DNA of 38,250 nt, from IMG/VR virus record IMGVR_UViG_2687453297_000004. One strand, 5' to 3'. This DNA is from a virus. Its lineage: Duplodnaviria; Heunggongvirae; Uroviricota; Caudoviricetes. The translations under genes were made by a program, and so were the position numbers. Positions 33,823 through 38,250 of this stretch are shown in pieces; within the stretch, counting starts at the first letter, position 1; each line of letters begins with the position of its first letter. The notes below the pieces were generated by a model that was not told where the DNA came from, searched no databases, and was given only the letters and a program-made list of their open reading frames with translations.

Positions 33823-34393
33823 GCCATTACAACTCCCGCCACCGCTTGAGGGTGATATCAGTCTCAGGACGCTGGGAAGACTGGCAGGACGGCTGGATAA
33901 CATCGACCTGAGCGTACTGATGGTCTTTCTCGTCGATATCGTCGACAGTTCCGCGCTGCCATGGCTGGGCGAGCAGTTCTCACTGTCTGGCGATGGCTGG
34001 GAGCTGGCGGAATCGGACGGTGTTCGCCGCATGCTTATAAAAGCAGCCATCGAACTGCACCGGTATAAAGGGACGCCGTGGTCAATCCGGGAAGTTATCC
34101 GCCGTTTTGGCTTTGGTGAAGTGGATCTGATTGAAGGCACAGGTCGTCTCAGTTACGACGGCAATCGCAGCTATAACGGACTGTTTGTTCATGGAGATGC
34201 AGCCGCCTGGGCAGTTTATCGCGTTATTCTGAAACAGCCCATTACTAACGATCAGGCCGCGATGCTGCGTCAGACGCTGGCTGCATTTGCACCGGCCCGC
34301 TGCCATCTGGCCAGCCTGGAGTATCAGTCTGTGGCCATTCGCTATAACAATACAGCCATCCATGATGGCAGTTATAACCACGGGAGCAGTTGA
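33815..34393 (+). CDS. Tail protein (P2 gpI-like baseplate component)
   Basis: 192 aa between the J-like and tail fiber genes. Confidence 0.6.
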   Translation: MTEPLQLPPPLEGDISLRTLGRLAGRLDNIDLSVLMVFLVDIVDSSALPWLGEQFSLSGDGWELAESDGVRRMLIKAAIELHRYKGTPWSIREVIRRFGFGEVDLIEGTGRLSYDGNRSYNGLFVHGDAAAWAVYRVILKQPITNDQAAMLRQTLAAFAPARCHLASLEYQSVAIRYNNTAIHDGSYNHGSS

Positions 34394-35991
34394 TTATGGG
34401 AAACCTGAATGAAACAGAAAAGTGGGAAGAAAATATCTATCAACTGGAGACATCAGATCCGGTTCTGGGTGGTGCAGACGGGATATCAAATCGAGCCCCC
34501 CGGCAACTGGCAAACAGGACGAAATGGCTGAAGAAGAAAACGGAGGAAGCCGCACAGTCACTGGCTGAACACGTACGTTCCCGTAACCACCCGGACGCGA
34601 CACTGACAGCTAAGGGGTTCACCCAACTGAGCAGTGCCACCAACAGCACCTCTGAAACGCTGGCCGCCACACCAAAAGCGGTCAAGGCTGCATACGACCT
34701 GGCAGCCGGCAAGGCGCCTGCCAGCCACACTCACCCGTGGAGTCAGATAACGGGAGTGCCTGCGGCTTCACTGACGGCAAAAGGCACCGTACAACTGAGC
34801 AGCGCCACGGACAGTCAATCAGAAACTGAGGCTGCCACGCCGAAGGCTGTGAAAATCGCGTATGATCTGGCCCGGGGAAAATACACAGCCCAGGATGCAA
34901 CAACGACCCGTAAAGGGATCGTACAACTGAGCAGTGCCATCAACAGCACGTCTGAAACGCTGGCCGCCACACCAAAAGCGGTCAAGGCTGCATACGACCT
35001 GGCAGCCGGCAAGGCGCCTGCCAGCCACACTCACCCGTGGAGTCAGATAACGGGAGTGCCTGCGGCTTCACTGACGGCAAAAGGCACCGTACAACTGAGC
35101 AGCGCCACGGACAGTCAATCAGAAACTGAGGCTGCCACGCCGAAGGCGGTCAAGGCTGCATACGACCTTGCAGCCGGCAAGGCGCCCGTCAGCCACACTC
35201 ACCCGTGGAGTCAGATAACGGGAGTGCCTGCTGCCTCGCTGACGGCAAAAGGCACCGTACAACTGAGCAGTGCCATCAACAGCACGTCTGAAATACTGGC
35301 CGCCACACCGAAAGCGGTCAAGGCTGCATACGATCTGGCAAACGGAAAACAACCGGCAGATGCCACGCTCACTGCTCTGGCAGGACTTGCCACTGCAGCA
35401 GATCGGTTGCCTTATTTTACCGGAGCAGACCGCGCAGCGCTGGCAACCCTTACAGCTATTGGTCGCGCTATTATCGCTAAGGGCAGTATAAAAGATGTCC
35501 TCAATTACCTTGGTTTGGGGGAAGGCTCGGCGCTGCCCGTTGGTGTACCTGTTCCGTGGCCCACTGCCACACCGCCAGCAGGCTGGTTACAGTGCAACGG
35601 AGCTACGTTCACCAAAGAACAATATCCTGTTCTGGCCAGAGTCTACCCGACCCTCCGTCTTCCCGATTTGCGCGGTGAGTTTATCCGTGGATGGGATGAC
35701 GGACGAAAGATTGACACCGGGCGTGCCCTGCTAAGCAGCCAGAGCGGAATGATTGAGAAACACCGTCATATTGTTGTTGCCAATGATGGTTACGACACAA
35801 AAGATGAATGGGAACTGGCTGCGATTTTCAAAAAAACATACACACAAGGACGAGGACTTGATGCCACAAATACAGGAGGGAGTCTGACCCCATCACCAAC
35901 ACTTCATTCGCGAGGGAGTATCGGTAATACTGGCGGGAGGGAAACCCGTCCACGAAATATTGCCTTTAACTACATTGTCAGGGCGGCCTAA
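34390..35991 (+). CDS. Tail fiber protein (constant N-terminal part, internal fiber repeats, currently fused to C-terminal cassette 1)
   Basis: 533 aa; five copies of the motif VQLSSAxxSxSETxAATPKAVKxAYDLA; C-terminus PRNIAFNYIVRAA; a conserved linker (VPVPWPTATPPAGWL...) recurs in two downstream cassettes. Confidence 0.8.
   Translation: MIMGNLNETEKWEENIYQLETSDPVLGGADGISNRAPRQLANRTKWLKKKTEEAAQSLAEHVRSRNHPDATLTAKGFTQLSSATNSTSETLAATPKAVKAAYDLAAGKAPASHTHPWSQITGVPAASLTAKGTVQLSSATDSQSETEAATPKAVKIAYDLARGKYTAQDATTTRKGIVQLSSAINSTSETLAATPKAVKAAYDLAAGKAPASHTHPWSQITGVPAASLTAKGTVQLSSATDSQSETEAATPKAVKAAYDLAAGKAPVSHTHPWSQITGVPAASLTAKGTVQLSSAINSTSEILAATPKAVKAAYDLANGKQPADATLTALAGLATAADRLPYFTGADRAALATLTAIGRAIIAKGSIKDVLNYLGLGEGSALPVGVPVPWPTATPPAGWLQCNGATFTKEQYPVLARVYPTLRLPDLRGEFIRGWDDGRKIDTGRALLSSQSGMIEKHRHIVVANDGYDTKDEWELAAIFKKTYTQGRGLDATNTGGSLTPSPTLHSRGSIGNTGGRETRPRNIAFNYIVRAA
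34621..35340 (+). repeat. Near-identical 300-bp tandem duplication inside the tail fiber gene
   Basis: 34621..34856 and 34921..35156 are almost identical by direct comparison; a partial third unit follows to about 35340. Confidence 0.85.
35498..35523 (+). other. Candidate serine-invertase crossover site (gix/hix-like), site a, inside the tail fiber gene
   Basis: ...ACC TT GGTTTGGGGGAA at the 5' boundary of a homology block of about 190 bp shared with the inverted cassette at 37410..37606. Confidence 0.45.
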
Positions 35992-36008
35992 ACGTTGGTT
36001 TAGGAGAA
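35983..36008 (+). other. Candidate crossover site b (direct orientation relative to site a)
   Basis: CCTAAACG TT GGTTTAGGAGAA with imperfect dyad CCTAAAC/GTTTAGG, overlapping the tail fiber stop, at the 5' edge of cassette 2. Confidence 0.4.
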
Positions 36009-36029
36009 GGCTCGGCGCTACCCGTTGGT

Positions 36030-36512
36030 GTGCCTGTTCCGTGGCCCACCGCCACACCGCCAGCAGGCTGGTTAAAGTGCGACGGGCGCGCCTTTACAAA
36101 AGAACAATATCCTGTTCTGGCCAGAGCCTACCCGACCCTCCGTCTTCCCGATTTACGCGGTGAGTTTATCCGTGGATGGGACGACGGGCGCAAAGTTGAT
36201 ACAGGACGTAAGTTGCTGTCCGCACAAGGGGCAACGCTGTTAAGAACAGCAATGCTGGATTATTATAACCAGGACACTACGGGAACCTCGGGGATAGTCG
36301 GCATGGGATTCAACAATGAAGATTCCATTACAGACCTTCGTGAGGGCAGCTTTAAAATGCCGGACGGGACAACATTCAGCGATCCTGTCGTGGCAATGTC
36401 AGACAATGGTATGCAGGCTACTATTCTGACCTCTATCAGAAGCGGGTATGCGAAGGGTATCACTGTCAGACCCCGTAGCATTGCACTTAATTACATTGTG
36501 AGGGCAGTTTAA
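36030..36512 (+). CDS. Alternative tail fiber C-terminal cassette 2 (no independent start; frame open from about 35970)
   Basis: Begins with the conserved linker VPVPWPTATPPAGWLKCDG...LRGEFIRGWDDGRK, then a divergent distal domain ending SIALNYIVRAV; its stop overlaps the start of the tail fiber assembly gene. Confidence 0.6.
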   Translation: MPVPWPTATPPAGWLKCDGRAFTKEQYPVLARAYPTLRLPDLRGEFIRGWDDGRKVDTGRKLLSAQGATLLRTAMLDYYNQDTTGTSGIVGMGFNNEDSITDLREGSFKMPDGTTFSDPVVAMSDNGMQATILTSIRSGYAKGITVRPRSIALNYIVRAV

Positions 36513-37126
36513 TGAGTAACACTGCAGTTCTGGATGAAAACGGTATCGCCACTGTAGCGGGCGATATCACTGTATATCACTATGACGAGGAAACCCGGGA
36601 ATACACCTCATCCTCTGTGGAGTATCTCGCCCTTGGGGTGGGTACTCCGGCACATTCGTGCGCCGATGCACCGCCGGAGGCAATTTCGGGTTACGTGGTT
36701 TGCCGGACTGCCACGCTGAACGGGTGGGAGCATGTGCCTGATCACCGCGGCGAGACGGTATACAGCACGGAGAACGGTAACCCCGTTCTGATTACCCAAC
36801 CGGGTGATTACCCGGCGGACACCACCACAAAACAGCCAGCCACGCCATGGGATACCTGGAACGGTGAGGCGTGGGTAACCGATACTGAACGGCAGCGAGC
36901 CGCAGAACTGGAGGTTGCCAGACAACAACGCCAGCAACGGGTGAAACAGGCGATGGCGTCCGTCGATCTTATCAACCTCAAACTGCGTGCTGGTCGCAGT
37001 CTGACACCAGAAGAAACGGCAAAACTGAACGCCGTGCTGGATTATATCGACGAGCTGAACGCACTGGATATCAGCACGGCACCTGAAATCAGCTGGCCGG
37101 AAGCGCCACTGGCACTTGCCAGTTGA
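36512..37126 (+). CDS. Tail fiber assembly protein (Tfa/U-like chaperone)
   Basis: 204 aa; TAATG coupling to cassette 2; sequence character typical of tail fiber assembly proteins. Confidence 0.7.
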   Translation: MSNTAVLDENGIATVAGDITVYHYDEETREYTSSSVEYLALGVGTPAHSCADAPPEAISGYVVCRTATLNGWEHVPDHRGETVYSTENGNPVLITQPGDYPADTTTKQPATPWDTWNGEAWVTDTERQRAAELEVARQQRQQRVKQAMASVDLINLKLRAGRSLTPEETAKLNAVLDYIDELNALDISTAPEISWPEAPLALAS

Positions 37127-37132
37127 ACGGTA

Positions 37133-37606
37133 TCACGCCGCCCTCACGATATAGTTAAACGCGATATTGCGGGGGCGGGTTATGTTAAAGAATGCTCCGT
37201 TTAATTCGGCTTTTGCGCGACTGTTTGTTCCACCCAGCACTGCGTACCACAAATAATCGCTACGGTAATTCCCCGCAAACACCTTATCGCCGCCATAGTC
37301 AATATTATTTCCGTTACTCATGTACGAGATATCAAGCGAAGAATCGTTATCGTCATGACCGCCGACCAGTGTACCTTTCTGCCATGAAAGCAACTTACGC
37401 CCCTCGTCAATCTTGCGCCCGTCGTCCCATCCACGGATAAACTCACCGCGTAAATCGGGAAGACGGAGGGTCGGGTAGACTCTGGCCAGAACAGGATATT
37501 GTTCTTTGGTGAACGTAGCTCCGTTGCACTGTAACCAGCCTGCTGGCGGTGTGGCGGTGGGCCACGGAACAGGTACACCAACGGGCAGCGCCGAGCCTTC
37601 CCCCAA
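37133..37606 (-). CDS. Alternative tail fiber C-terminal cassette 3 (inverted, no independent start)
   Basis: Minus-strand ORF encoding the same linker followed by a third distinct distal domain ending PRNIAFNYIVRAA; the first 190 bp or so are nearly identical to 35511..35700 in inverted orientation. Confidence 0.6.
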   Translation of the reverse strand: MGEGSALPVGVPVPWPTATPPAGWLQCNGATFTKEQYPVLARVYPTLRLPDLRGEFIRGWDDGRKIDEGRKLLSWQKGTLVGGHDDNDSSLDISYMSNGNNIDYGGDKVFAGNYRSDYLWYAVLGGTNSRAKAELNGAFFNITRPRNIAFNYIVRAA

Positions 37607-37623
37607 ACCAACGTTTATCTCTC
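37598..37623 (-). other. Candidate crossover site c (inverted relative to sites a and b)
   Basis: Reverse complement reads AGATAAACG TT GGTTTGGGGGAA, at the boundary of the inverted homology block and 55 bp upstream of the invertase gene. Confidence 0.45.
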
Positions 37624-37677
37624 AAATCCTCCCCACATTATCTCAGTACTTTAACCACTCAAAAGGGAGTATTTTTA

Positions 37678-38250
37678 ATGCTGATTGGCTACATACGTGT
37701 GTCAACAAATGACCAAAACACAGATTTGCAACGCAATGCATTAATGTGCGCAGGATGTGAACAGATTTTTGAGGACAAAATGAGCGGAACCAAGTCGGAA
37801 CGACCAGGCCTGAAACGCGCTTTAAAGTGCCTTAAAAGAGGGGATACATTGGTGGTCTGGAAGCTGGATCGGTTGGGTAGAAGAATGAAACACCTCATTG
37901 CTCTCACAGAAGAGCTACGCGCAAAAGGTGTCAATTTTCGCAGTCTGACGGATTCAATCGATACCAGCACTCCGATGGGAAGGTTCTTTTTTCATATGAT
38001 GGGTGCACTGGCAGAAATGGAGCGTGAACTGATAGTTGAGCGCACGCTGGCTGGACTGGCTGCTGCGCGAGCACAAGGAAGAGTTGGAGGACGTCGCCCG
38101 AAACTGACGAAGGAGCAGCATGAGCAGATCGCAAGATTGCTCCAGAAAGGGTATGACAGAAAGCGGCTGGCAATTATCTATGATATTGGACTGTCAACGA
38201 TCTACCGCTATCACCCTGTTGGGACTGTCATAACGCAACCTGAAATGTAA
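37678..38250 (+). CDS. gin: Serine recombinase, DNA invertase (Gin/Hin/Cin/Pin family)
   Basis: 190 aa; N-terminus MLIGYIRVSTNDQNTDLQ with catalytic-serine context; near-colinear with Mu Gin as I recall it; SD AAGGGAG upstream. Confidence 0.9.
   Translation: MLIGYIRVSTNDQNTDLQRNALMCAGCEQIFEDKMSGTKSERPGLKRALKCLKRGDTLVVWKLDRLGRRMKHLIALTEELRAKGVNFRSLTDSIDTSTPMGRFFFHMMGALAEMERELIVERTLAGLAAARAQGRVGGRRPKLTKEQHEQIARLLQKGYDRKRLAIIYDIGLSTIYRYHPVGTVITQPEM

Follow-up and report, generated by a model that had tools for sequence, protein, structure and literature searches.

The invertible segments G of phage Mu (S-U / S'-U', inverted by Gin), C of P1 (Cin) and P of e14 (stfE-tfaE / stfP-tfaP, Pin) each have two crossover sites and two isomers, and each of their alternative fiber tips comes with one tail fiber assembly protein (Tfa). 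The Min region of p15B, the subject of work by Sandmeier, Iida and Arber in 1990-92, is said to combine a serine invertase of the Pin/Min group with more than two 26-bp sites, a constant 5' fiber part and several collar-type 3' ends. Here we analyse the right end of the prophage in IMG/VR record IMGVR_UViG_2687453297_000004 (the whole 38,250-base stretch is called the window below), where one tfa gene lies among three alternative fiber tips. The module is the host-range switch of the Escherichia coli EC958 Phi2 family. For EC958 Phi2 itself, the published description gives two crossover sites and a mirror-image arrangement in which each side has a cognate minor gene, and PacBio reads directly showed inversion at these sites (Forde et al. 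2014, PMC4134206). Three alternative C-terminal tips with a downstream gin-type recombinase have also been reported for the Enterobacter phage FRphi, a three-tip shufflon with a tip usage of 50:25:25, and related loci have up to six tips (PMC13418256).

The window system is an ordinary and already documented invertase switch, of the Min/Pin type and of the published EC958 Phi2 prophage family. What we add is comparative sequence evidence for a single, probably generalist Tfa, together with a sharply defined question about the isomers in which tfa is inverted. Chaperones are not discussed in the FRphi paper (Nat Microbiol 2026, PMC13418256), and our literature searches found no discussion of chaperone sharing in multi-tip inversion systems. 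On balance, the comparisons presented below lead us to lean towards one generalist Tfa that would be shared by all tips.

The Tfa gene, the tips and the crossover sites

The tfa gene (36512..37126, plus strand) encodes a protein of 204 amino acids (aa) that matches Caudo_TAP (PF02413) with an E-value of 3.5e-28 and 98.8 bits, the cut-off being 22.1, and Caudo_TAP_N (PF28596) is recorded on a cluster representative 95% identical to it. The AlphaFold2 (AF2) model of the protein, with a predicted local distance difference test score (pLDDT) of 85.8, has beta strands at residues 13-123 and a helical hairpin formed by helices 125-159 and 166-184. This modelled two-domain build, a beta-rich N-domain and a helical C-domain, is as described for Mu Tfa, in which the former binds the fiber and the latter serves oligomerisation. 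When the 511 stop-to-stop open reading frames (ORFs) of the window were searched by hmmsearch, with a hidden Markov model from 88 Tfa modules, and by phmmer, with the 147-aa Tfa type, only 36512-37126 was matched.

An earlier, sequence-only reading of this DNA had considered the single Tfa for three tips a departure from the one-per-tip layout of Mu and P1, and had named a second Tfa just outside the window or a decayed tfa as what would undo that view. Neither is found. Past the invertase gene that closes the module, close relatives carry host genes and nothing phage-like, and hundreds of genomes have an intact tfa with 95-100% identity; the departure therefore stands.

The gene is coupled to tip 2, as had been noted, its ATG overlapping the tip-2 stop codon as TAATG. 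The Shine-Dalgarno sequence GAGGG (36500..36504, plus strand), 7 nt upstream, is made by Val-Arg-Ala codons of the tip C-terminus, which means that the C-terminal codons GTGAGGGC double as the ribosome-binding site of tfa. The junction from tip C-terminus to tfa, GTGAGGGCnGCnTAATG, is conserved in about 50 loci together with the TAATG overlap. In the window (36490-36514) and at the tip-tfa junctions of the comparison loci L003-L105, which come from many genera, the final tip codons GTG AGG GCn GCn TAA (V-R-A-A-stop) hold the GAGG. On its other side tfa is convergent with the tip 3 cassette, with 6 nt between the two stop codons, again as first described.

We have also considered a hidden chaperone antisense to tfa (36608-37123, minus strand, 172 stop-free codons in this prophage family), an idea suggested by the 65-aa ORF of P2-like loci described below. 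In Tfa genes that are 43-63% identical, the corresponding stretch has 54-159 codons; it is not conserved, and is probably a compositional by-product, so that we reject the idea.

In the present assembly, the tail fiber gene (34390..35991, plus strand; Phage_fiber_2 1.5e-93, Collar 4.1e-15) consists of a constant part, reaching to about 35497, fused to tip 1. Alignment and clustering assign tip 1 (35506..35991, plus strand) to type E, with a collar domain, a variable middle containing a His-x-His (HxH) motif and a conserved C-terminal strand. The tip 2 cassette, of type A (35991..36512, plus strand), lacks a promoter and start codon of its own and comes in frame with the fiber once recombined. 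A GTG at 36030 had earlier been taken as its start; the real start is at 35991, right after the fiber stop. Tip 2 is found fused to the fiber in loci L002, L011, L107 and L110. The tip 3 cassette, of type D (37133..37615, minus strand), is convergent with tfa and never co-oriented with it; in L017 and L021 it is fused to the fiber while tfa is inverted.

Alignment of the three tips shows that the N-terminal 80 aa and the final 14 aa are nearly invariant, while the middles of 65-80 aa are unrelated. The near-identity of the extreme C-termini, already remarked upon, extends over these last 14 aa (RPRNIAFNYIVRAA), for which the consensus is T/V-RPR-N/S-IA-F/L-NYIVRA-A/V. The Collar domain (PF07484) is matched in all three tips with E-values of 1e-15 to 4e-15, and the collar matches the T4 gp37 tip (PDB 2XGF) with an E-value of 1.3e-14. 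The NIAFNYIVR motif aligns to the extreme C-terminus of gp37, that stretch alone not being significant. In the gp37 structure, the chain comes back from the distal head to the collar, and the C-terminal strand packs onto the collar. If the chain returns in the same way here, the invariant N- and C-terminal parts would form one proximal domain and the variable middle the distal receptor-binding part. Each tip is a T4-gp37-like collar tip, in which an invariant collar and an invariant end flank a variable receptor-binding insert. The open frame runs through to the conserved C-terminus in every cassette. An AF2 monomer model of tip 3 has a pLDDT of 57 overall, with less than 50 in the variable part, 77-89 in the collar and about 70 in the last 10 residues, a poor result that is to be expected for an intertwined trimer.

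The HxH motif of tip 1 stands right after the collar (EKHRHIVV, window 35750-35775) and may be comparable to the iron-binding needle of T4 gp37. It is absent from tips 2 and 3. Among the tip types described below, the motif occurs in C, E, F, M, N and P and is lacking in A, B, D, G, H, I and J.

A search with the pattern ACSTTGGTTTRGGRGAA gave exactly three crossover sites, imperfectly symmetric and of 26 bp each, where none would be expected by chance. Site s1 (35498..35523, plus strand; TCCTCAATTACC TT GGTTTGGGGGAA) lies inside the fiber gene, and its core and downstream half-site match the EC958 Phi2 5' site pattern except at the allowed G/A positions (PMC4134206 Table 3). Site s2 (35983..36008, plus strand; GCGGCCTAAACG TT GGTTTAGGAGAA) is direct to s1 and spans the fiber stop codon; its surroundings recur around s1 in direct orientation, over 218 nt and with 88% identity, and around s3 in inverted orientation, over 232 nt and with 90% identity. 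Site s3 (37598..37623, minus strand; GAGAGATAAACG TT GGTTTGGGGGAA on that strand) has the opposite orientation to s1 and s2 and the same sequence as the EC958 Phi2 3' site, and is kept upstream of all related invertase genes. The window sites are the counterparts of the published Phi2 sites and agree with the Sandmeier consensus as quoted in PMC4134206. The junctions of all cassettes, checked on the sequence, are in frame.

Since the invertase family recombines inverted sites, two direct sites and one inverted site imply four isomers. The present one (state 0) has fiber-tip 1, tip 2 forward, tfa forward and tip 3 reversed. State 1 has fiber-tip 3, with tfa, tip 2 and tip 1 all reversed; state 2 has fiber-tip 1 and tip 3 forward, with tfa and tip 2 reversed; and state 3 has fiber-tip 2-tfa, with tip 3 and tip 1 reversed. 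All four are seen among sequenced relatives with identical proteins (invertase WP_000904922.1, Tfa WP_000072167.1, fiber WP_099582858.1): state 0 in L106, state 3 in L011 and L107, state 2 in L109, and state 1 in L017, L021 and L013. With more than two sites, some of them direct, more than two isomers and more than two tips, this is a multiple-inversion system of the Min/shufflon type. If the four isomers of this topology were equally populated, a tip usage of 50:25:25 would be predicted, as in FRphi.

The gene for Tfa is on the fiber strand in two of the four predicted isomers, the present one included. Tips 1 and 3 had both been thought to have no chaperone gene in cis in any isomer. For tip 1 this has to be revised, because tfa is co-oriented with it in two of the four isomers, among them the present one, where it lies 520 nt past the tip-1 stop. 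Of the three tips, only tip 3 is never co-oriented with tfa, and for it the statement holds.

Tip arrays and the case for a generalist Tfa

We now compare the window with its relatives. Tips from 112 fetched loci, clustered by their variable middles, fall into 17 types, and in this scheme the window reads fiber-E, A, Tfa, D. The Mu-like prophage family has arrays of two tips (A/D), three (E/A/D, E/A/B, G/A/D, H/A/B and J/A/D), four (E/H/A/B) and six, and whatever the number of tips there is always one Tfa. The P1-like IncY phage-plasmids examined have 6-9 tips and also a single Tfa, and cassette types E, G, H, J and B occur both in them and in the Mu-like prophages. The layout of one Tfa and many tips is widespread in E. 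coli phages and P1-like plasmids, and is a multiple-inversion design of the Min/Pin type.

The cassettes that lack a tfa appear, from their substitution patterns, to be under purifying selection. In their variable regions, the ratio of nonsynonymous to synonymous substitution rates (dN/dS) is 0.13 for E, 0.13 for H, 0.27 for I, 0.30 for G, 0.42 for B and 0.19 for F; type D has too few substitutions for a judgement. Each cassette type of the window family, B and F included, is found fused to the fiber in some genome. Tip 3 (type D) and its alleles B and F share the position convergent with tfa, and they are intact in about 200 genomes.

Outside this family, the same kind of Tfa is as a rule tied to a collar tip. 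A scan with one genome per species gave 54 loci in about 40 species of other Enterobacterales, and in 51 of the 54 a collar tip stands directly before this Tfa type. In pairs of collar-tip modules that face each other, such as L068, L082, L083, L087 and L113, each tip has its own Tfa. Taken together, this linkage and the facing modules indicate that collar tips are normally clients of Tfa, and the one-to-one ratio elsewhere makes the single-Tfa arrays a real departure from the canonical layout. The tip types that lack a Tfa of their own in the window have one in other places. In an O157:H7 prophage (L012), a type E tip with 92% nucleotide identity in its variable part has a tfaE of its own behind it, and type D tips, 70-74% identical and with clearly homologous middles, precede Tfa genes of their own in Erwinia aphidicola (L113) and Enterobacter hormaechei (L114). 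With type A linked in the window itself, each of the three window tip types is a Tfa client in at least one place. As regards the suggestion that tips 1 and 3 may form a chaperone-free class, the comparative evidence therefore speaks against it.

It is also informative to ask which part of the tip the Tfa follows. In 3,741 pairs of tip-Tfa modules, those with tip middles less than 30% identical still have 56% identity in the Tfa N-domain, 43% in the C-domain and 66% in the collar. Swaps have also occurred in nature: the Tfas of the Lonsdalea loci L090 and L091 are 95% identical (N-domain 99%) with tip middles at 21%, and those of L057 and L061 are 86% identical with middles at 18%. As the Tfa N-domain does not track the tip middle, the parts recognised are most plausibly the invariant ones.

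On this basis, the single Tfa, with its Caudo_TAP_N and Caudo_TAP domains, would recognise the invariant parts of the tip rather than the variable insert, and one tfa gene would assist whichever tip is fused to the fiber. When on the fiber strand, as in two of the four isomers, it would be made from the late fiber transcript by means of its own Shine-Dalgarno sequence. A Tfa of this kind may have let the other cassettes shed their own tfa and shrink to plug-in units of about 480 bp. Going one step further, we tentatively propose, with rather less confidence than we have in the sharing itself, that docking on the invariant collar and C-terminal stretch of gp37-like tips is universal for this Tfa. 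It would uncouple the tips from cognate chaperones, so that chaperone-less cassettes of 480 bp could accumulate, at most nine in an array, and move between Mu-like prophages and P1-like plasmids.

The idea that one chaperone may serve all tips had originally been based on the near-identical C-termini. The idea itself gains from the conserved N-domain, the swaps and the linkage of types E and D to a Tfa elsewhere. Its original basis is less telling: the C-terminus is in the first place a motif shared with gp37, and its codons also provide the ribosome-binding site of tfa, so that it is not specific evidence for chaperone docking. The conserved Shine-Dalgarno/TAATG junction means that part of the conservation of the tip C-terminus may be explained by a constraint at the RNA level.

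Expression of tfa and the competing explanations

Several observations weigh against a shared Tfa. In Mu Tfa, the N-domain is the non-conserved, fiber-specific half that is bound to the distal fiber, according to PMC9608196, which cites North 2019. In the Tfa family of the window, on the contrary, the N-domain is the better conserved half, and a generalist would contradict the rule. No fold match was found between the AF2 model of the Tfa and Mu Tfa (PDB 5YVQ). That Tfa would act on tips 1 or 3 is suggested by comparison between loci. Expression is a further difficulty. It had been asked whether a promoter lets tfa be transcribed in both orientations, and a consensus scan of both strands of 34000-38250 gave no sigma-70-like site. 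Looking by hand for a -35/-10 pair that reads leftward and could serve the inverted tfa gave nothing convincing, and the gap of about 55 bp between s3 and the start of the invertase gene differs from one invertase type to another. The late fiber transcript of states 1 and 2 has tfa in antisense orientation. Even the present isomer has tfa behind 520 nt of untranslated cassette, over which Rho polarity could lower its expression; in the P1-like arrays, the untranslated stretch amounts to up to about 4 kb. Between the fiber stop and tfa no terminator is predicted, and there is no stable or unusual hairpin (RNA fold z-score -0.8). Among 30 sampled loci that include the fiber gene, tfa is co-oriented with it in 19 and inverted in 11, a distribution that neutral inversion in lysogens would produce and that is uninformative on function. 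Finally, tip 3 and its alleles B and F are never on the tfa strand and are nevertheless intact, in more than 200 genomes, and seemingly under purifying selection, which a strictly co-transcribed and essential Tfa fails to explain.

This last point also supports the explanation that Tfa is needed by tip 2 alone, and that tips 1 and 3, like the other cassettes without a Tfa, form their trimers unaided or with host chaperones, without any sharing. The positional alleles that are never co-oriented with tfa remain intact in those roughly 200 genomes, with dN/dS below 1 for B and F, and an evident promoter for the inverted tfa is missing from the scanned region. Some collar-domain fibers, moreover, such as T4 gp12, are not known to use a Tfa-type chaperone. 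On the other hand, types E and D are directly overlapped by a Tfa gene of their own in O157:H7, Erwinia and Enterobacter, and this Tfa type stands directly behind a collar tip in 51 of the 54 loci. Nor do linked and unlinked tips separate into sequence classes, HxH and non-HxH tips each occurring both with and without a linked Tfa, and the Tfa N-domain does not co-vary with the tip middle. We consider this explanation unlikely, although it deserves to be kept in mind. The shared Tfa is also to be set against the possibility that all tips need Tfa, which is made only when co-oriented, so that tfa-inverted isomers, namely all those with tip 3 on the fiber and half of those with tip 1, are fiber-defective or have to rely on 56-63%-identical Tfas encoded by other prophages in the cell, a cost that the phage would bear for having compact cassettes. 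The missing expression route for the inverted gene fits here as well, and complementation in trans is conceivable: E. coli genomes that have any match to this region have a median of three matching places, and Tfa homologs such as tfaE are present in other E. coli prophages. In FRphi, only one of the three locked tip states is infectious, which its authors credit to receptor specificity (PMC13418256). A tip that is always defective should, however, decay, and the tips in the convergent position are intact and under purifying selection, with at least three alleles (D, B and F); reliance on other prophages would be unreliable too. This possibility strikes us as improbable, and slightly more so than a Tfa confined to tip 2.

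A further explanation would make cassettes 1 and 3 decaying remnants of a duplication or recombination and leave only tip 2 and Tfa functional; it draws on annotation pipelines that call unfused cassettes partial or pseudogenes. These labels merely reflect the absent N-terminus of a cassette that is currently unfused. All cassettes have open frames to the conserved C-terminus, the dN/dS of the variable region is well below 1, each cassette is fused to the fiber in some genome, and Mu-like prophages and P1-like plasmids draw on the same circulating cassette types. The relic explanation is already largely refuted, and we give it hardly any credence.

Returning to the generalist Tfa as the reading we prefer, the tips that are never on the tfa strand and yet are maintained imply either hidden, orientation-independent production of Tfa or Tfa-free folding. 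Candidates for the supply in the tfa-inverted isomers are weak orientation-independent transcription, Tfa provided in trans by co-resident prophages, and partial or full dispensability. Either hidden production or Tfa-free tips would revise the rule of one cognate Tfa per fiber tip, and the concrete question raised is how the tfa-inverted isomers build their fibers. There are practical sides to this. Engineering of phage and pyocin host range usually moves a tip along with its cognate chaperone; if it is true that one Tfa serves many unrelated collar tips, the inserts of about 65-80 aa would be plug-in specificity modules on a constant scaffold. For annotation, it is important to be aware that Tfa-less cassettes are routinely labelled as pseudogenes.

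Prophage setting and comparison with known systems

The window is a complete Mu-like transposable prophage of E. coli, which encodes an rve-type transposase, a MuB-like AAA protein, a Mu portal, a Mu F-like protein, a contractile sheath and a P2-like baseplate. Its final 3.9 kb hold the fiber gene, the two unfused collar cassettes, the Caudo_TAP gene and the serine invertase. The latter (37678..38250, plus strand, at the extreme right end) is a DNA invertase of 190 aa of the Pin/Min/Gin family, with matches to Resolvase (PF00239, 8.2e-51) and HTH_7 (PF02796, 1.3e-12). This small serine recombinase has a C-terminal helix-turn-helix besides its resolvase catalytic domain and adjoins invertible DNA, and as such belongs to the Din family. 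By tblastn it is 100% identical to WP_000904922.1, the invertase of relatives in this prophage family, and it is 76-79% identical to the invertases of loci annotated pinE and 84% to that of the P1-like plasmids.

In relatives, the invertase gene is the final phage gene and is followed by host DNA, for example rstA, ascB, aroA or uvrD. Across E. coli strains, the host neighbours of the same element are rstA, ascB, sbmC/yeeA, mdfA, aroA, uvrD, potG, yegT and clbH. The prophage sits at many chromosomal sites in L001, L002, L011, L013 and L106-L111 (rstA, ascB, sbmC/yeeA, mdfA, aroA, uvrD, potG, yegT), and two strains have it next to a lambda-like gpJ gene and the colibactin gene clbH. So many different insertion places point to transposition in the recent past and to genes that may have been disrupted.

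The constant part of the fiber consists of five Phage_fiber_2 repeats, and in relatives the fiber gene comes after a P2-I-like baseplate gene. Within the five units, window 34600-35340 contains long, near-perfect direct repeats with a period of 168 nt and 2.6 copies (TRF). The fiber has 533 aa in the window and about 540, 599, 611 and 643 aa in relatives, and these differences suggest that the repeats expand and contract.

Some of the comparison loci have unusual layouts. One IMG/VR contig (L018) has two Tfa genes and a fiber fragment between its cassettes, and in another (L025) two fiber genes face each other across one tip-Tfa-tip unit; both may result from recombination between two resident elements or from assembly artefacts. 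An IS21-family element, ISEc10, lies inside the tip cassette array of L108 (NZ_CP146670.1) and splits one cassette. In the P2-like prophages L003-L006 (5575-5772), a 65-aa ORF without a Pfam hit comes after a non-collar tip of 126 aa and overlaps the end of tfa, and it may be a small dedicated chaperone for that type of tip.

We finally turn to the known systems. The tip of T4 gp37 has the chaperones gp38 and gp57A. The window tips are like gp37 in having a collar and NIAFNYIVR at the extreme C-terminus, and unlike it in being much shorter, at about 160 aa. With Mu G, P1 C and e14 P, the window shares the invertase family, the swapping of fiber 3' ends, a tfa right behind the tip and an invertase at the segment edge; it differs from all of them in its three sites, four isomers and one Tfa for three tips. 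With the Min region of p15B and the P1-like IncY plasmids, it has in common an invertase of the Pin/Min group, more than two 26-bp sites and one constant fiber part with alternative collar-type ends. The number of sites and isomers, only three and four, sets it apart from these. In contrast to the P1-like IncY plasmids, moreover, the system terminates a Mu-like transposable prophage that lies in the chromosome and has a P2-like baseplate, and the Tfa-linked tip is of type A in the window and of type C in the plasmids, the two Tfas being 56% identical. FRphi is a lambda-like siphovirus of Enterobacter, whereas the window is a Mu-like E. coli prophage, and the two are compared by description only.

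The closest relation is to EC958 Phi2, which belongs to the same prophage family, with a 100% identical invertase and the same Tfa family (Forde et al. 2014, PMC4134206). The EC958 locus (L110; NZ_HG941718.1 1003500-1010500) has three collar tips, A fused and B and H inverted, and a single Tfa, and a third, internal crossover site was apparently overlooked in the published description. Compared with the window, EC958 Phi2 has the same 3' crossover site and a 5' site with differences at the core G/A positions only; its tips are H, A and B, those of the window E, A and D.

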